Source of the DNA: Octopus vulgaris
Lineage: Eukaryota
Direction: 5' to 3'
DNA length: 64,000 nucleotides
Assembly: GCA_951406725.2 (NCBI GenBank)
Contig: OX597819.1
Coordinates: forward strand, 112,902,001 to 112,966,000
Below, piece by piece: positions 14,804 through 50,150 of the stretch. The number at the start of each line of letters is the position of its first letter. The stretch's first letter is position 1. A program made the position numbers and the translations under genes. The notes under the pieces were generated by a model. It was not told the DNA's origin, did not search any database, and worked only from the letters and a program-made list of their open reading frames with translations.

Positions 14804-15380
14804 AGGCGGTGAGATGGCAGAAACATTAGCACGCCGGGTGAAATGCTTAGTGGTCTGTCTTTACGATCTGAGTTCAAATTCCGCCGAGGTTGACTTTGCC
14901 TTTCATCATTTCGGGGTCGATAAATTAAGTACCAGTTACGCAATGGGATCGATGTAATCGACTTAATCCGTTTGTCTGTCCTTGTTTGTGTTCTCTGTGT
15001 TTAGCTCCTTGTGGGTAGTAAAGAAATAGGTAGTTCGTCTACCGCTACGTTCTGAGTTCAAATTCTGCCGGGGTCGACTTTGCCTTTCATCCTTTCGGGG
15101 TCGATTAAATAAGTACCAGTTACGCACTGGGGTCGATATAATTGACTTAATCCGTTTGTTTGTCCTTGTTTGTCCTTTGTGTTTAGCCCCTTTTCGGGTA
15201 GTAAAGAAATAGGTATTTCGTCTGCCGCTACGTTCTGAGTTCAAATTCCGCCGAGGTCAACTTTGCCTTTCATCCTTTCGAGGTCGATAAATTAACTACC
15301 AGTTGCGTATTGGGGTCAATCAAATCGACTAGACTCCTTCCACCAAATTCTGGGCCTTGTGCCTAGAGTAGAAAAGAATA
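14804..15380 (+). mobile_element. SINE family A trimer (head-to-tail)
   Basis: One full head, then two units restarting at ggta(t/g)ttcgtc after aaagaaata. Confidence 0.85.
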
Positions 15381-27148: not shown

Positions 27149-27212
<64 letters not shown>

Positions 27213-27352
27213 AATATAAGAGAGTGGTCACTATATGGCTCACTCTAGCACCAGTTAATCCAAAAGGTTTCAACCACAAAAATACATGCTTCCCATGAAA
27301 GTTAGTACGATTGTTAGCTCACACGGACAGGGCAAATAAAAATAACAAAATA

Positions 27353-27449
27353 CAGATTATTTTGGGACAATTGTTTCGCTATTAATGAATTAAATGTAAT
27401 TTTACTTACAATTAAAATCCACTTGTAGCTCTTCAGCCAAAACTATCTG
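27353..27449 (-). ncRNA. Type I hammerhead ribozyme, copy 1 of 6
   Basis: cagauaguuuugg-CUGAAGA-gcua...uagc-GAAA-c-aauu-GUC/ccaaaauaaucug; 13-position stem I with one mismatch; predicted cut between 27366 and 27365. Confidence 0.85.
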
Positions 27450-27886
27450 GATGAAATCCACTCAATCACACGCCAGATTTTACCATAACGATAAATACGC
27501 GTGTGGTTCAATTGATTACATCCGACGTTATAATTCAAATGCCCCAACTAACAGCGCGCCAAACTCTCACGGAAAACAAATACAGCATTTAGAAATAAAT
27601 GCAGCATAATTATAATTAATTAATAAGGGTGAGAGAATTAGATACTAATTTAATAGTATATCTATTCTACACCAAGTGGCCTAGTGCTCCGAGAAACCTG
27701 GATTATTATAATATTTTACAATATATTATAATATTTTTACAAAATAAATATAAGAGAGTGGTCACTATATGGCTCACTCTAGCACCAGTTAATCCAAAAG
27801 GTTTCAACCACAAAAATACATGCTTCCCATGAAAGTTAGTACGATTGTTAGCTCACACGGACAGGGCAAATAAAAATAACAAAATA

Positions 27887-27983
27887 CAGATTATTTTGGG
27901 ACAATTGTTTCGCTATTAATGAATTAAATGTAATTTTACTTACAATTAAAATCCACTTGTAGCTCTTCAGCCAAAACTATCTG
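27887..27983 (-). ncRNA. Type I hammerhead ribozyme, copy 2 of 6
   Basis: Same motif at +534. Confidence 0.85.
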
Positions 27984-28420
27984 GATGAAATCCACTCAAT
28001 CACACGCCAGATTTTACCATAACGATAAATACGCGTGTGGTTCAATTGATTACATCCGACGTTATAATTCAAATGCCCCAACTAACAGCGCGCCAAACTC
28101 TCACGGAAAACAAATACAGCATTTAGAAATAAATGCAGCATAATTATAATTAATTAATAAGGGTGAGAGAATTAGATACTAATTTAATAGTATATCTATT
28201 CTACACCAAGTGGCCTAGTGCTCCGAGAAACCTGGATTATTATAATATTTTACAATATATTATAATATTTTTACAAAATAAATATAAGAGAGTGGTCACT
28301 ATATGGCTCACTCTAGCACCAGTTAATCCAAAAGGTTTCAACCACAAAAATACATGCTTCCCATGAAAGTTAGTACGATTGTTAGCTCACACGGACAGGG
28401 CAAATAAAAATAACAAAATA

Positions 28421-28517
28421 CAGATTATTTTGGGACAATTGTTTCGCTATTAATGAATTAAATGTAATTTTACTTACAATTAAAATCCACTTGTAGCTCT
28501 TCAGCCAAAACTATCTG
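28421..28517 (-). ncRNA. Type I hammerhead ribozyme, copy 3 of 6
   Basis: Same motif at +1068. Confidence 0.85.
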
Positions 28518-28954
28518 GATGAAATCCACTCAATCACACGCCAGATTTTACCATAACGATAAATACGCGTGTGGTTCAATTGATTACATCCGACGTTATA
28601 ATTCAAATGCCCCAACTAACAGCGCGCCAAACTCTCACGGAAAACAAATACAGCATTTAGAAATAAATGCAGCATAATTATAATTAATTAATAAGGGTGA
28701 GAGAATTAGATACTAATTTAATAGTATATCTATTCTACACCAAGTGGCCTAGTGCTCCGAGAAACCTGGATTATTATAATATTTTACAATATATTATAAT
28801 ATTTTTACAAAATAAATATAAGAGAGTGGTCACTATATGGCTCACTCTAGCACCAGTTAATCCAAAAGGTTTCAACCACAAAAATACATGCTTCCCATGA
28901 AAGTTAGTACGATTGTTAGCTCACACGGACAGGGCAAATAAAAATAACAAAATA

Positions 28955-29051
28955 CAGATTATTTTGGGACAATTGTTTCGCTATTAATGAATTAAATGTA
29001 ATTTTACTTACAATTAAAATCCACTTGTAGCTCTTCAGCCAAAACTATCTG
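28955..29051 (-). ncRNA. Type I hammerhead ribozyme, copy 4 of 6
   Basis: Same motif at +1602. Confidence 0.85.
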
Positions 29052-29488
29052 GATGAAATCCACTCAATCACACGCCAGATTTTACCATAACGATAAATAC
29101 GCGTGTGGTTCAATTGATTACATCCGACGTTATAATTCAAATGCCCCAACTAACAGCGCGCCAAACTCTCACGGAAAACAAATACAGCATTTAGAAATAA
29201 ATGCAGCATAATTATAATTAATTAATAAGGGTGAGAGAATTAGATACTAATTTAATAGTATATCTATTCTACACCAAGTGGCCTAGTGCTCCGAGAAACC
29301 TGGATTATTATAATATTTTACAATATATTATAATATTTTTACAAAATAAATATAAGAGAGTGGTCACTATATGGCTCACTCTAGCACCAGTTAATCCAAA
29401 AGGTTTCAACCACAAAAATACATGCTTCCCATGAAAGTTAGTACGATTGTTAGCTCACACGGACAGGGCAAATAAAAATAACAAAATA

Positions 29489-29585
29489 CAGATTATTTTG
29501 GGACAATTGTTTCGCTATTAATGAATTAAATGTAATTTTACTTACAATTAAAATCCACTTGTAGCTCTTCAGCCAAAACTATCTG
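29489..29585 (-). ncRNA. Type I hammerhead ribozyme, copy 5 of 6
   Basis: Same motif at +2136. Confidence 0.85.
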
Positions 29586-30022
29586 GATGAAATCCACTCA
29601 ATCACACGCCAGATTTTACCATAACGATAAATACGCGTGTGGTTCAATTGATTACATCCGACGTTATAATTCAAATGCCCCAACTAACAGCGCGCCAAAC
29701 TCTCACGGAAAACAAATACAGCATTTAGAAATAAATGCAGCATAATTATAATTAATTAATAAGGGTGAGAGAATTAGATACTAATTTAATAGTATATCTA
29801 TTCTACACCAAGTGGCCTAGTGCTCCGAGAAACCTGGATTATTATAATATTTTACAATATATTATAATATTTTTACAAAATAAATATAAGAGAGTGGTCA
29901 CTATATGGCTCACTCTAGCACCAGTTAATCCAAAAGGTTTCAACCACAAAAATACATGCTTCCCATGAAAGTTAGTACGATTGTTAGCTCACACGGACAG
30001 GGCAAATAAAAATAACAAAATA

Positions 30023-30119
30023 CAGATTATTTTGGGACAATTGTTTCGCTATTAATGAATTAAATGTAATTTTACTTACAATTAAAATCCACTTGTAGCT
30101 CTTCAGCCAAAACTATCTG
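30023..30119 (-). ncRNA. Type I hammerhead ribozyme, copy 6 of 6
   Basis: Same motif at +2670. Confidence 0.85.
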
Positions 30120-30184
30120 GATGAAATCCACTCAATCACACGCCAGATTTTACCATAACGATAAATACGCGTGTGGTTCAATTG

Positions 30185-30232
<48 letters not shown>

Positions 30233-31185: not shown

Positions 31186-31247
31186 ATTTACGTAACCAGA
31201 TGATACTTTCCATACCTCTGCTAACTTCTACCTATCTCAATTAACAG

Positions 31248-34200
31248 GTGTCGCTAAAGGAGGAATATTTCCAAGACGTCCTTTTTTCTTCTTCCGGACC
31301 TTGCCATCATCGTCCTCATCATCATTGCCATCATCCCCGTCGTTGCCAAGCAAACCAAAATCGACGGCGACATCGCAGCCATCAACTGCATTGCCATCAA
31401 CAATACTATCGCATGACACAACACATGTGACAAGAGAAGTATTAACACACGTGACTACAGGAGAATCAACACACATGACTACAGGAGAATCAACACACGT
31501 GACTAGAGGAACATCAACACATGTGACCACAGGAGCATCGACACAGGTGACCACGAGCGCAGCAACCCCCGGAATCGAACGCAAAACACGCGCGACCAGA
31601 CCTTCAACCCATGTGGCTAGACCTAAAACAAGCAAGGACAAACAATCAACTCCACACGTGACAGAACACACTGTACGCTTGACTAGACGAAAAACGCAGG
31701 GAACCAGACCAACAACACACGTCACCAGATCAACCTCACACGTGTCCAGCCGTAAAACAGACAAGTCTGGACCATTAACAACACGTGCGACCAGACGAAC
31801 AGAACACGAAACCAGAAATGCAAACCACGTGACTAGACCAACAACACACGTGACCAGATCAACCTCACACGTGTCCAGCCGTAAAACAGACAAGTCTGGA
31901 CCATTAACAACACGTGCGACCAGACGAACAGAACGCGTAACCAGAAATGCAAAACACGTGACTAGACAAACAACACACGTGACCAGATCAACCTCACACG
32001 TGTCCAGCCGTAAAACAGACAAGTCTGGACCATTAACAACACGTGCGACCAGACGAACAGAACACGAAACCAGAAATGCAAACCACGTGACTAGACCAAC
32101 AACACACGTGACCAGATCAACCTCACACGTGTCCAGCCGTAAAACAGACAAGTCTGGACCATTAACAACACGTGCGACCAGACGAACAGAACGCGTAACC
32201 AGAAATGCAAAACACGTGACTAGACAAACAACAGATGTGACGAGGCGAGCGAAAGATGTAACCAGACCAACACACGTGATCAGTTCTAAAACTGACAGAT
32301 TTAGACCATTAACGACACACGTGACCAGACGAACAGCATACGTAACCAAACCAACAGCACATGTGACCAAACCAACAGCACACGTGACCAAGCCAACAGC
32401 ACACGTGACCAAGTCAACAGCACACGTGACCAAGTCAACAGCACACGTGACCAAGCCAACACCAGATTTGACTAAACCAACACACGTGACCAGACGTATA
32501 ACAAATGCAACTACTAGGGTCTCGTTAAACATGACTACGACACCAGAGTCCGCAGGAATGGGTAACAGTATTATTATTACTGCCAAGAGAACGGCAGCAA
32601 CAGTAACAACACCATCTAAAACGACAAAAACAACAGCAGCAACAACAGCAGCAGCAACAGCAGCAGCAACAGCAGCAGTGTATTCGGCACCGTTCGAAAC
32701 CGAGACCCCCACTAATCAGAATGTGACAGCAGGATCTGAACGCCTGGCACAAACGTCTTTGTCGAACGATCGAACAAAGGAACATGTCTCATCCACACTG
32801 CATGAAGGGAACCGTACGCCAACTGAATATTTGTTGGCAAGGGAGACACCACCACCACCACCACCATCATCATCTTCATCATCATCATCATCATCATCGT
32901 CGTCGTCGTCGTCGTCGTCGTCTTTACCGAATGTTAGGTCAACGCGCAATGTAAAGGCAAAGACAACACAATTTATTTTGGGCCAGTCAACCCAGATCAC
33001 AGAGAAAGTTCGTGATGCTGTGGAGGCAGAGAGTCCTTTGCTAACGCCGCCACCACCGCAACCATCACTGTCTCTTTCATTGTTATCATCATCATCATCA
33101 TCATCATCACCATCGCCACCGTTCCCACAAGCACAGACATCACCACAACCACCACCACAAACACCACCACCACAAACACCACCACCACCAACACCATCGC
33201 CACCACTACCACAGACACTGCCAGCATCACCAGTATCAACATCACTATTACCACAAACACCACTTCCATCAACAGCAACACCACTACAAAAACCATTACC
33301 ACCATCACAAACACCACCACTACCACAAACACCACCACCAACACCATCGCCACCACAACAAACATCACCGCCACTACCACCACCACAAACACCACCACCA
33401 GCAGAAACACGCCCATCACTAAAACTAACGCCACCACCACAAACACCACCGCCGGCTCCATCATCACAACCACCATCACCATCTCCGCTACCAACGCCAC
33501 CACCATCACCACCGCCATCAACACCGCCGCAATCAGCACCACCTCAACCACCATCAATACCAGCACCATCACTAAGACCAACTCCTCTATCACAAACACC
33601 ATCAAAACAACCACCGCCGCCGCCACCACAAACGCCACGACGACCACTAGGAATACCATCACCCTCACTAACGCAAACACCACCACCGTCATTCCTACCG
33701 TTGTCACCACCACCATCTCCACCACCATCACCACCACCATCATCACAACAAACCCCATCATCACCATCATTACAAACACCAACAACAATATTAAACACAT
33801 CAAAATCTAATCATCCATTTAGTGGGGTATATGCCACCCCGGCACAGTCAACATTTGTAGATCAGCCTCCCATTTATGGCCTTTTGCCCTCAACGCACGC
33901 ATCTCCTCGCCCAAACCTTTCTACATTCCAGACTTACACGAACCTACAAACGGGTCCCTCTAAAGTACCGGAAGCCACAAGTCAGATTCCCTCCCTGAAC
34001 ACCCAAGATGTCAATTTTCCTAGAAAGTCTACCGTTCAAGACGGAACTTCAGAAAATCGCCATATATCTCTTGGGATCACATCTCAGACACTGGTAGATG
34101 TAACAGCAGCCATAAACACTGTAAACCGAACAGAGCAGGTTCGATCCGCTGAAGCCCAGACTAAGCGTCAAACGACATCGATGGCCACGATGGTAAGAAC

Positions 34201-35945
34201 AACAAGAGCACTAATGAATACAACAACTACAACAACAAATGGAACGACAATACCAGCATCAAGAAGAGCCACTCAGATACCAGAATCAACAATATCAATA
34301 GCAACAACTGCAACAACAAAAAGACCTGAACTTTCAAAAGAAACAAATAACATTTTCCCTGTCAACATCACCACTATGACTACTGCTGCCGCTTTTGCTG
34401 TTAACTCCACCACCACCACTACCACCACAACCATCTCTGACATCATCAACATTGCCGTCACAAATATTGTCCTTAACGCTACTAGTGATATGAAAAGCAA
34501 GAGCCCTGTTAATACCAACAGAGTCTTTAACAATAGGAACACTAGTAATAGTACCATGTCCGTAAATACCACTAACACCATTTATAATTTCATTAGCACC
34601 ACCGATAGCAACAACAGTAACAGCAGCGTGACTGTTGATACTACCAAGGCCAATAACAACCTCATTAGCACCCTCGGTAGCAACATCAGGAACACTGTCA
34701 TTGCCGATAGCACAACCAGTAAAACCATCATTAACAACACCGATAGCAACACAAACAACCTCATTGACACCACCGATAGCAACACCAGTAACGTTGCCAC
34801 TGACATTAATTATAACCTCGTAAACAGCACCGATATCAACATTAGCAACACTGACAACTACATTCATTCCACCGATAGCAACACCGTCAACTACATTCAT
34901 TCCACCGATAGCAACACCAACAACTACATTGATTCCACCGACAGCAACACTAACACCATCCGTAACAACAGTATCGCTAACACCAAAAACAGCCATTATA
35001 GCATAACTGATAGCAATATAAGCCACATTACCACTAACATCAGGAACACCTCGTCCATCAGCTCCACTACTAACAACACTACCAATAATATTAAAAACTC
35101 TGCAAACACCACCAGTACTACAAAAATTAGATCTAAGGTCAAAGCCTCTCCTGGGGTGTTACATTCGCCCGGAACAACTTCCGTCACAAATTCCAGTCAT
35201 AGACCAAATGAACGAAATATGACAGTATTGGCTATAGATAATCGACACACAGTTCCAGGTGTACAGCTGAAGAGCTCGTACGAAACACCTACCACTCAAA
35301 AACGTATTGCAGACATGCAACAATATAACAACGATAACAACAACGACAACACCGTCTCGGGTGGGAAACGAACGTTGTACAAACTGCTTCGTCAAAAGAA
35401 CAAATATAAGCCACAGTTGTGGCCCCGCGTTCAAATAGGTAAGGAAACAGGGCATTTGCAAAACTTCAATACTCGGTTAGAGAGCGGAAACCGACACAAA
35501 TTCGAACGCGACTTCTTTAAACGGGTCAAACGAAGTTATCAGGAAACGGATACGTTAGGTCCCGATACAGGGAGTGAATTTCAAACCGGACCGATGGGCA
35601 TTCGAATTCCGGTGACAATTGTTTCAGGTGTAACTGGATGTTTTAAATCCTCGGGAACGAAAACATCGACTGTATTACCACTGTTTGTGACTAGAAACCG
35701 AGATCAAACTCAACAGGATATTTGGCAAACTACGAGTGATAAACCTGCTAAAAGACAAACAATGCGTCCAGGGGAGTTTCAAACTCAAGAGCCAACTGAT
35801 GTAGTAGCACACAACAGTGTATTTTCTACACACCCAACCACAATGAGTCGATCTTCGCAACAAAATAGGAATTCGAGCGATGTATGCTTCATACCCATTG
35901 ATGCTACATTTGTTGATCCGAGTCGCACTCTATATATATTTAGTG
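31248..35945 (+). CDS. MMP coding exon 7 (4698 nt): giant T/S/P/N-rich linker plus start of hemopexin domain
   Basis: Acceptor ttaacAG; a single open frame (ORF track 1550 aa) in phase with exon 6; ends in CFIPIDATFVDPSRTLYIFSG (hemopexin blade 1) at donor G|GTGAGT. Confidence 0.88.
31703..32240 (+). repeat. Coding minisatellite: 129-bp (43-aa) unit x about 4, ABAB pattern
   Basis: aacctcacacgtg recurs at 31732, 31861, 31990 and 32119; units alternate EHETRNAN / ERVTRNAK. Confidence 0.92.
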
Positions 35946-36383
35946 GTGAGTAACGCAATCTTTTATTAAATAATTAAGTCATAATGTAATCTGTTTATTT
36001 AGTAAGCTGACTCGAATTTTCCTACCACATAAACCGGATCTCTGAACTAATATTTTAATAGCGCTTTTAAAGACTATAGGGTAATATTTAAGGCAAATTT
36101 GGCTATTATTCTCAGCAGACCGAACAACGCAGCTGAGATTCTCTTGTATGATTTAAGCCCTACAGGATGCGTTGTTCGATTCCTGTTCAAGTAATGCTGG
36201 CTCTTCAACAACAGCAAATTGTCTTTTAGAAATATGTAATGTTTAACATTATTCATATACTAAATGTTAATTTTGTACCACGCGCCCATATGTATACATA
36301 TATACTGTATATATATATGTGTGTGTGTGTGTATATGCATGTGTTTGTGCGTAGGAGTGTATGTGTGTGTATGTATACTCTTT

Positions 36384-37401: not shown

Positions 37402-37960
37402 GTGGCGAGCTGGCAGAATCGTTAGCACGCCGGGCGAAATGTTTAACGGTATTTCGTCTGCCGTTACGTTCTGAGTTCAAATTCCGCGAAGGTCGACTTT
37501 GCCTTTCATCCTTTCGGGGTCGATTAAATAAGTACCAGTTACGCACTGGGGTCGATATAATCGACTTAATCCGTTTGTCTGTCCTTGTTTGTCCTCTCTG
37601 TGTTTAGCCCCTTGTGGGTGGTAAAGAAATAGGTATTTCGCCCGTCGCTACATTCTGAGTTCAAATTCCGCCGAGGTCGACTTTGCCTTTCATCCTTTCG
37701 GGGTCGATTAAATAAGTACCAGTTACGCACTGGGGTCGATATAATCGACTTAATCCGTTTGTCTGTCCTTGTTTGTCCTTTCTGTGTTTAGCCCTTTGTG
37801 GGTAGTAAAGAAATAGAAATAGGTATTTCGTCTGTCTTTACGTTCTGAGTTCAAATTCCGCTGAGGTCGAATTTGCATTTCAGCTTTTCGGGGTCGATAA
37901 AACAAGTACCAGTTGAGCATTGGGATTGATTTAATCGATTTACCTTCTTCCCAAAATTGC
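37402..37960 (+). mobile_element. SINE family A trimer
   Basis: Full head, then two headless units restarting at ggtatttcg. Confidence 0.87.
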
Positions 37961-43229: not shown

Positions 43230-43720
43230 TGTCGTTTCGTTTCGTTCGACGGATCCGGCGCCTTTCGTGGAAGCTTTCGCCCGCTTCTTAGGACCGACTG
43301 GCCCGTGCTCGACCGCCGGTCTTCGAAGGTCTCGTTCGAATATTTGCTACTATCACCGGGATCTGCACCCGCGGTCGGCTTCACCCGGGCTCGCGCCCGC
43401 GGCTTCCACGCACGCCGCGGCGCCCTCCTACTCGAACGGGCATCGGAAAGTCGCCTCGCCGGCGATTGTTCAACCTGTCGCCCGACCGGTCCGTCATCGG
43501 TCACTCGCTCCAGCGCCATCCATTTTCGGGGCCGATCGATTCGGCAGGTAAGTTGTTACACACTCCTGAGCGGATTCCGACTTCCTTGGCTACCGTCCTG
43601 CTGTCTATATCGACCGACACCGTTTCGGGGATCTAATGGGCGAAGCGTAGGGCACCTTAGCCGGACGTTCGGTTCATCCCACATCACCAGTTCTGCTTAC
43701 CAAAAGTGGCCCACTTGGCA
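43230..43720 (-). pseudogene. 28S (LSU) rRNA fragment, non-functional dispersed copy
   Basis: Conserved LSU blocks on + as reverse complement: cttaggaccgactg, gaatatttgctact, cgctccagcgccatccattttc, gttgttacacactcct, cagttctgcttaccaaaagtggcccact. About 490 bp only, with an apparent internal deletion at 43320/43321. Confidence 0.92.
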
Positions 43721-43942
43721 CCACCTTTATCTTACTAAATAATAATAAAAAACCAAGAATAAACTATATAATAATTAAAATAAGCGCGTAGATCAAACTA
43801 ATGACAGCTTTTGTAAAGAATCGATTAAAAGAGTCGAAGAAGAAGGTAAATTTGTATACCACGTGTAGAGATGGGTTCTTGTGCTTTAGGCAGCGGTCTT
43901 TTTCAGAGAAATAACCATAAATGTTAATATCTAATTCGTCAT

Positions 43943-48898: not shown

Positions 48899-48955
<57 letters not shown>

Positions 48956-49013
48956 CGTATATATATACGCGTTGTGTATATATATGTATGTATATATACA
49001 TATAAATATATAC

Positions 49014-49065
<52 letters not shown>

Positions 49066-49071
<6 letters not shown>

Positions 49072-50150
49072 GTTATCGCCATACTAATATGGCATTCTTA
49101 TAAAAATAAGAAAAAAGCTGTCCGCTTATTAGCTCCATGAGGCCATCGCCTTAAGTTAGCTATTTGATACACAAACTGTATCCATATAACCTTCGAACAA
49201 GGGAGGTCAGTCGCTCCACACTACTTGACCGGCAGCTACAGACGCGTTTCGGGGTATTGCCCCTTTTCAATGCAGCGTAGCCAGCCAGTAGGTGTCGCTT
49301 CCGACAATCTCTGTTCGATGGTTTTATTTACCTAGTTTCGGTGGAATACATCCACTTGTTTTCAATAATAGAAATATTAAAATAACTAAGTCTCTCTAAA
49401 AGAGAACAGCGGCAGCGTTCCCGGAAAATAATAGTTATCGCCATACTAATATGGCATTCTTATAAAAATAAGAAAAAAGCTGTCCGCTTATTAGCTCCAT
49501 GAGGCCATCGCCTTAAGTTAGCTATTTGATACACAAACTGTATCCATATAACCTTCGAACAAGGGAGGTCAGTCGCTCCACACTACTTGACCCGCAGCTA
49601 CAGACGCGTTTCGGGGTATTGCCCCTTTTCAATGCAGCGTAGCCAGCCAGTAGGTGTCGCTTCCGACAATCTCTGTTCGATGGTTTTATTTACCTAGTTT
49701 CGGTGGAATACATCCACTTGTTTTCAATAATAGAAATATTAAAATAACTAAGTCTCTCTAAAAGAGAACAGCGGCAGCGTTCCCGGAAAATAATAGTTAT
49801 CGCCATACTAATATGGCATTCTTATAAAAATAAGAAAAAAGCTGTCCGCTTATTAGCTCCATGAGGCCATCGCCTTAAGTTAGCTATTTGATACACAAAC
49901 TGTATCCATATAACCTTCGAACAAGGGAGGTCAGTCGCTCCACACTACTTGACCCGCAGCTACAGACGCGTTTCGGGGTATTGCCCCTTTTCAATGCAGC
50001 GTAGCCAGCCAGTAGGTGTCGCTTCCGACAATCTCTGTTCGATGGTTTTATTTACCTAGTTTCGGTGCATTGAAAAGGGGCAATACCCCGAAACGCGTCT
50101 GTAGCTGCCGGTCAAGTAGTGTGGAGCGACTGACCTCCCTTGTTCGAAGG
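49066..50150 (-). repeat. Tandem array, 362-bp unit x about 2.8, plus an inverted 85-bp terminal copy; hammerhead-bearing PLE/retrozyme-like
   Basis: atactaatatgg at 49081, 49443 and 49805; 50066-50150 is the reverse complement of part of the unit; (TA)n on the left flank. Confidence 0.93.
49235..49276 (-). ncRNA. Type I hammerhead ribozyme, U3-A8 core variant (further copies at 49597-49638 and 49959-50000; + strand copy at 50066-50105)
   Basis: gcugca-UUGAAAA-gggg caaua cccc-GAAA-cgc-GUC/uguagc; stem I is extended by uggcuggc/gccgguca. Confidence 0.8.

Follow-up and report, generated by a model that had tools for sequence, protein, structure and literature searches.

A dispersed 362-bp octopus repeat with a predicted U3-A8 hammerhead: a candidate non-LTR retrozyme family with a Penelope-like insertion footprint

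Hammerhead cleavage and RNA circles have been shown for non-LTR retrozymes of metazoans (Cervera and de la Pena 2020, PMC7229834; Li, Clavereau and Pollet 2026, 10.64898/2026.07.22.740005), which, as far as the accessible text of PMC7229834 goes, are tandem non-coding units of 350-390 bp with less than 45% GC and a type I hammerhead each, with a self-paired monomer and with Penelope-like elements (PLEs) in the same genome. A 362-bp repeat of Octopus vulgaris resembles them in these features of unit, monomer and PLE company, its hammerhead being a predicted one. Its stem III, one pair and a palindromic tetraloop, is built like that of axolotl HHR_Amex1, which needs dimers: its monomer cut to 6%, and the dimer far more efficiently (PMC7229834); eight of nine Xenopus retrozyme dimers did not cut (10.64898/2026.07.22.740005). 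Unlike those described in the accessible parts of these papers, the octopus unit has a U3-A8 pair fixed family-wide in its hammerhead, which is predicted here, and its two-armed inverted insertions with two preferred ends (S and T, below) in (AT)n are without description in the same parts of the metazoan retrozyme papers.

The compensatory core pair itself is known. Perreault et al. (2011, PMC3088659) described natural U3-A8 cores and stated in one sentence that the pair was already known to be active in vitro, and Cercyon PLEs of Schistosoma mansoni carry minimal U3-A8 hammerheads with about 1,300 matches (Cervera and de la Pena 2014, PMC4209133). The octopus motif has the same core pair, and the novelty that a preliminary description of the locus had implied for it was thus overstated. 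By contrast, the Schistosoma motifs are, in the text accessible, minimal, heterogeneous and mostly single, whereas the octopus one is canonical, extended, tandem and part of a young candidate retrozyme. In the literature searched we found neither a canonical retrozyme hammerhead with a fixed U3-A8 pair nor the octopus 362-bp hammerhead family; supplements may list the former, and those of PMC7229834, PMC4209133 and the 2026 preprint the latter.

Known marks of PLE insertions are an inverted copy, a (TA)n target and a tail that one of the ends may carry (Craig et al. 2021, PMC8557442; Arkhipova et al. 2013, PMC3846280). In vitro, both strands are cleaved and extended by a purified PLE, which starts at two internal sites bounding the tail and needs no hammerhead cleavage (Frangieh et al. 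2024, PMC11167929). The octopus insertions resemble the EN+ Neptune/Nematis PLEs of these accounts in 5' truncation, a head-to-head inverted copy, a tail, (TA)n or AT-rich targets, a hammerhead motif and two putative internal starts. In contrast to those PLEs as there described, the unit contains no ORF, the tail is 63 nt instead of 30-40 nt, both putative start sites are one heptamer and the arms are multimers of a short unit. Because core variant, element class and tail are each already known, the gain is incremental.

The 362-bp array and its predicted hammerhead

The analysed window is a stretch of 64,000 nucleotides, and a tandem repeat scan of it recovered the array, as the preliminary description had it, at 49066-50067 with a period of 362; it holds 2.8 (2.77) copies (Table 1). 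Of 362 sites, 1 differs between units 1 and 2, and units 2 and 3 are identical over 278. Unit GC is 42%, and the ORF list of the window has no frame of at least 150 aa across the array. What had been overlooked is an inverted arm with a fourth hammerhead core (U3 50070, plus strand; stem I there is only 4 bp), which meets the main arm head-to-head with a 2-nt overlap and carries the majority allele of the genome. This arm extends past the array, and the element therefore spans 49066-50150. The unit is, as claimed, unrelated to the 534-bp unit of a second array in the window, with which it has only AT-rich 10-16-mers in common (best E 0.14). The 534-bp array (27207-30186, about 5.6 units) lies between (AT)n flanks on both sides; its minus strand carries a canonical CUGAAGA hammerhead, in which the stem II region has 52 nt and stem III is palindromic.

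Table 1. Features of the insertion (positions in the window unless a locus is named) and a young Penelope-like element
Feature	Position	Strand	Details
(TA)n microsatellite, insertion target	48911..49065	.	left flank of array
Main arm	49066..50067	-	2.77 tandem copies of the 362-bp non-coding unit
Units of main arm	49066-49427, 49428-49789, 49790-50067 (partial)	-	
S (short) 3' end, CTATTAT, unit position 362	49066..49072	-	joined to (TA)n target
Extended type I hammerhead 1 (predicted)	49217..49294	-	U3 49270, A8 49265, C17 49241
Hammerhead-like relic overlapping T site	49320..49372	-	hairpin kept, GAAA box broken
T site, second CTATTAT, unit position 63	49365..49371, also 49727-49733	-	internal here
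Hammerhead 2 (predicted)	49579..49656	-	U3 49632, C17 49603; private change 49593
Hammerhead 3 (predicted)	49941..50018	-	U3 49994, C17 49965; private change 49955
Inverted arm	50066..50150	+	unit positions about 151-235; exact reverse complement of part of unit 1
Young full-length PLE	L061:289-5510		about 28 kb past window end; direct pLTRs

Both strands of the window were scanned for type I hammerheads with any 3-8 pair allowed. The scan returned the minus-strand U3-A8 motif in all three units, where it had been reported, plus one poorly paired chance match, and a looser scan added the fourth core and six canonical motifs of the 534-bp array. Hammerhead 1 has a stem I of 6 bp followed by an internal loop and an extension, a stem II of 4 bp and a palindromic stem III; the last consists of one pair and a palindromic tetraloop (ACGCGU, which recurs in the units as had been noted) and is of the dimer type. 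C17 maps to the position that agrees with the predicted cut between 49241 and 49240. The 8-bp extension claimed for stem I is unbroken in unit 1, the allele of which is the genome majority; in units 2 and 3 the private change introduces a G-G mismatch. The extended motif of unit 1 folds with a z-score of −3.17 (0 of 200 shuffles as good) and that of unit 2 with −2.29, the weaker value being due to the private mismatch. The cut-to-cut monomer gave a z-score of −6.41, with 0 of 100 shuffles as good, and is thus highly self-paired. These results support the view that the unit carries a type I hammerhead, predicted to be self-cutting, in which U3-A8 acts as a compensatory pair.

The motif is invisible to the usual searches, as had been foreseen for CUGANGA. 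The literal CUGANGA consensus is absent from it, its 3-8 pair being the Watson-Crick pair U-A, and no Rfam hammerhead family matches here at the gathering score or at E values up to 10; the canonical motif of the 534-bp array is likewise missed by Rfam at the gathering score. Searches that use CUGANGA or Rfam would therefore undercount animal retrozymes.

The preliminary description had taken the three units as evidence of covariation. They are near-identical, so that none is shown among them, and U3-A8 never varies in the family. We therefore turned to an alignment of 14 subfamily representatives, hand-picked from 77 distinct stretches, with the structure drawn from the window. Of its 322 cells (23 pairs), 94.7% are paired, as compared with 22-54% in slid-structure controls, and the genome majority keeps the hammerhead stems, an outcome on which the preliminary description had made the case depend. 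Two-sided changes were found in 5 of the 23 pairs: one in stem I (A-U, G-C and G-U), two in its extension, one in stem II (the first pair) and one in stem III, where the palindrome centre changes from ACGCGU to ACAUGU with the two-hammerhead pairing kept. The alignment scored 0.208 for covariation and the shuffles 0.118 (0 of 500 as high), while the number of two-sided pairs was equalled in 21 of 500; given that the 14 rows are kin, the two-sided changes amount to about five events. The UUGANAA, GAAA and UC boxes are invariant in 14/14, core position 7 alone varying, and the 3-8 pair is U-A in every representative. Such invariance says nothing by itself on selection. The evidence for selection read from these sequences is the five other pairs across subfamilies about 80% alike, not U3-A8 itself.

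The loop bases recall those of a known ribozyme. Like Sm-alpha of Schistosoma mansoni (PMC2632901, PMC6155905, as far as accessible), the motif has a stem I internal loop facing the stem II apical loop, with a U and a UAC strand in loop 1 and, for 4 of the 14 representatives, the letters CAAAUA in loop 2. In 14/14 the U of loop 1 is conserved and loop 2 has C as its first and A as its last base. These bases equal those making the tertiary contact in the Schistosoma ribozyme (PMC2632901), the contacts here being putative and read from sequence. By contrast, the core of Sm-alpha has C3-G8, and the window's subfamily has a 5-nt loop 2.

A weaker hammerhead-like motif had also been reported near 49325-49372. 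Its letters exist, but its fold is no better than that of shuffled sequences (z −1.57, 16 of 200 as good) and 7 of 14 relatives have a broken GAAA box, and we therefore rejected it as an active ribozyme. Seventeen letters around its 5' box are invariant in 14/14; given that these are the letters of the T end, the conservation is explained without catalysis, and the motif is probably not catalytic.

Genome-wide family, insertion ends and Penelope-like elements

The genome (2.8 Gb) was searched with the unit, and the best 40 of 1,215 candidates were scored. These gave at least 47 full-length rows whose identity rounds to 100%, spread over 18 contigs. An 80%-identical relative lies beside a GIY-YIG match and drew 2,724 candidates when used as query, and pattern searches returned more subfamilies at 79-97% identity, the older ones at 79-87%. 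The family core pattern matches 1,846 U3-A8 sites genome-wide against 0 for its reversed control. With G8 it yielded 5 matches (control 0), all of them single changes to U3-G8, and 0 with C3-G8, so that no canonical sister subfamily was found with this pattern. One descriptor, shaped on U3-A8 families and to be read as such, matched the genome 4,132 times with U3-A8 and 1,397 times with C3-G8. Most of the listed C3-G8 matches belong to an abundant older family (L158-L177), whose motif has U17 and a canonical core and leaves a base unpaired after A9.

At least 84% of sampled unit words are present in twenty sequencing runs from 12 studies, and the family is therefore not peculiar to one assembly, though one run may be its source; none of the runs listed there was an RNA run. 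Contigs of four runs guessed to be RNA cover the unit, and one 379-nt piece spans the whole of it with the majority allele; with no silent-stretch control and over a thousand genomic copies, this coverage is no evidence either way, and contigs of this kind tell nothing of strand, ends or circles. Short non-coding tandem units, three complete motifs, dispersed copies that look retrotransposed and a self-paired monomer are the features of a retrozyme, and on these sequence features the 362-bp repeat is classed as a young, dispersed, non-coding non-LTR retrozyme family.

Insertion ends were mapped for 87 insertions. Omitted were repeat loci of one insertion and four further loci: L127, which runs off its locus, L187, which has an N run, L193, for which there was no match, and L194, which is interrupted. 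A single duplicated insertion may account for both L075 and L089. Fifty-seven of the 87 are head-to-head, so that both of their outer ends are sense 3' ends. Sense 3' ends lie at S (unit position 362) or T (about 63) in 132 of 144 cases, and (AT)n adjoins 113 of the 144 as compared with 5 of 30 5' ends. CTATTAT occurs only at S and T, 63 nt apart, among 14 TAT sites per unit. Of 47 inverted insertions whose two ends could both be classed, 44 combine one S with one T end, as do 16 of 18 (p 6.6e-4) from a subset of 36 insertions that were found by the core pattern and not selected on their ends. Of 30 single-armed insertions, 25 have their end at T (9 of 12 in the unbiased set). We infer that the S end of the window is a start point of reverse transcription; its T site, internal here, is the tailed 3' end of other copies. 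The short arm of the window is atypical, as it ends at about 235, at neither S nor T and outside (AT)n, with an imperfect match to the flank. Taken as a footprint, this combination of inversion, a tail that may be absent and a (TA)n target is the signature of a Penelope-like element. At one insertion with two T ends (L007:1400-2800) the unique flanks are inverted copies of each other, which suggests a larger fold-back duplication.

The enzyme behind such a footprint would have to be encoded elsewhere. No ORF with reverse transcriptase (RT) and GIY-YIG was found in the unit or beside it. Linked PLE ORFs, for which the preliminary description had proposed a search, were likewise not found in the window, where two of 28 frames were scanned against Pfam (the two longest non-repeat-looking ones, neither with a match). 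Frames at the retrozyme loci, read by eye, revealed none common to several insertions. In a GIY-YIG profile search the best 150 of 6,136 candidates were scored and gave 148 matches, 16 of which lie in an open 781-aa frame that combines an RT domain (just below the Pfam cut-off), GIY-YIG and a CxxxxCxxC linker and whose predicted protein fits the description of Neptune/Nematis. In L061 a 479-aa upstream frame overlaps this 781-aa frame. Its pLTR has a U3-A8 core with U17, older subfamilies having A17, and its copies are 98-99.8% identical, as young as subfamily A. The L061 family targets (AT)n and has ends with or without a tail of 36-40 nt, with CTATTAT in the tailed end; of 30 loci, 9 had both arms, and all 9 combined one S-like with one T-like end, though the query favoured T. 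Among families with ends seen, CTATTAT at an end occurs in this one only. The L061 young element is the best helper candidate, with about an even chance of being the one.

No parent was found for the unit itself. Its comparison with the L061 pLTR gave no significant match (best E 1.7), and no parent pLTR was found among the PLE parts of 30 GIY-YIG loci, where the one match (L049) is a neighbouring retrozyme insertion; by contrast, 24 of 57 Xenopus families match known elements in the accessible text of the preprint (10.64898/2026.07.22.740005).

(AT)n is also the target of a further PLE family (L051), whose tail has about 60-68 nt and whose end letters are other than CTATTAT. It carries a hammerhead-like motif with an A3-U8 core (L051:2040-2085 and inverted copy; L203-L212), in which stem II is self-complementary over 8 nt and stem III reads ACCGGU. 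The motif has 175 genome matches (control 0), and 99 of the first 100 listed are A3-U8. We found no natural A3-U8 core in the literature searched, and this core may be more novel than U3-A8.

Proposed copying pathway and competing explanations

The reading that we consider probable is that of a young non-LTR retrozyme insertion with a predicted hammerhead, copied into TA microsatellites in trans by a Penelope-like RT with GIY-YIG. The minus strand would be transcribed as a multimer. Neighbouring hammerheads, whose structure is supported by the covariation, would pair via the palindromic stem III and cut after C17, with U3-A8 in place of C3-G8. A host ligase may then circularise the monomer, by analogy with the retrozymes of mussel and axolotl, a step we hold about as probable as the use of an uncut multimer as template. 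A Penelope enzyme would nick both (AT)n strands, and cDNA would start at the two CUAUUAU sites, one per strand; the ends of this step are seen in the footprint, while the enzyme is presumed. Both cDNAs would pass the cut site, run on for up to about 7 units, stop, and join head-to-head at short overlaps, the head-to-head product being present in the genome. Fold-back copying of the first cDNA was set aside, as either arm can be the longer.

The nature of the template is where the evidence divides. Of 168 aligned pieces, 76 are longer than one unit and the longest has 2,751 nt, indicating a template that is either a circle or an uncut multimer. In the latter case the repeat would be a non-autonomous Penelope derivative spread from uncut linear multimers, its hammerhead cutting rarely or with protein and without a circle, an explanation that we regard as somewhat doubtful. 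In line with it, the cut site (unit positions 186-193) shows no surplus of arm 5' starts (4 of 155 against 3.4 expected), and the genome thus gives no direct trace of cutting. Starts do cluster at positions 217-232 (26 of 155 against 6.9 expected, in a range set after seeing the data; window about 49558-49573), near a TTCGAA palindrome in a long-range stem, which suggests a pause site or a joining overlap. Mixed alleles also occur among the units of one arm: variants are found in only some units of one arm in the window and in L004, and the first piece of L197 is without variants that its later units carry. Such cases are at odds with a single pass round one monomer circle and suggest multimers, template switches or later duplication. 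In vitro, moreover, the PLE substrate was mainly unprocessed RNA and the hammerhead needed protein, as far as the accessible text tells (PMC11167929). By contrast, in L121 and L116 variants are common to all units of both arms, which fits one circle. Copying from uncut multimers also leaves it to be explained how arrays with arms of such length regrow, and it sits uneasily with the strong self-pairing of the monomer and with an extended canonical hammerhead that has stems of 6 bp and 4 bp and contact bases in its loops, whereas the PLE motif of L061 is minimal.

The helper might be another Penelope-like family, e.g. L051, in which case the U3-A8 core and CTATTAT that the retrozyme has in common with L061 would be convergence. 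We place this a little short of an even chance. The (AT)n target of the L051 family and its two ends about 60-68 nt apart are in its favour; the tail of L061 has about 36-40 nt against 63 in the unit, and the unit is without homology to the L061 pLTR; the scoring of the best 150 out of all GIY-YIG candidates also leaves room for other families. On the other hand, the restriction of CTATTAT ends to the L061 family, together with its youth, which equals that of subfamily A, and its many open frames, argues for L061. A tighter arrangement, which we regard as unlikely, is a helper-parasite pair. The retrozyme would have acquired, or come to match, the U3-A8 core of a resident Penelope element, taken here to dominate hammerheads of this class in the genome, and would mimic its CUAUUAU twice, the two subunits of a dimeric enzyme then priming both cut strands 63 nt apart on one RNA circle. 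If true, then with the A3-U8 family three of the four Watson-Crick 3-8 pairs would be found in one genome, a natural series for testing protein-assisted cleavage. A satellite origin, in which a dead motif only looks like a hammerhead and the repeat spread through unequal crossing-over or copying at the DNA level, is very improbable. The private change common to units 2 and 3 would fit such local duplication, but the short arrays on many contigs, with fixed 3' ends, ragged 5' ends and inversions, and the end statistics contradict it, as does the covariation of the stems across subfamilies.

For the preferred reading of a retrozyme copied in trans, the unit offers a short template with two defined putative starts and a young candidate enzyme. 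These would let Penelope-driven retrozyme spread be tested, and the same system could probe the origin of the Penelope tail in vitro.

Elsewhere in the window, an isolated fragment of large-subunit rRNA (288 bits) lies on the minus strand at 43366-43830. A 1,585-aa stop-free frame on the plus strand at 31196-35953 is composed of 21-, 24- and 129-bp repeats, has no Pfam match and is possibly a large repetitive exon. Finally, a common interspersed repeat occurs in tandem at 14862-15330 and 37448-37942, with a period of 183-184 and 2.6 units.
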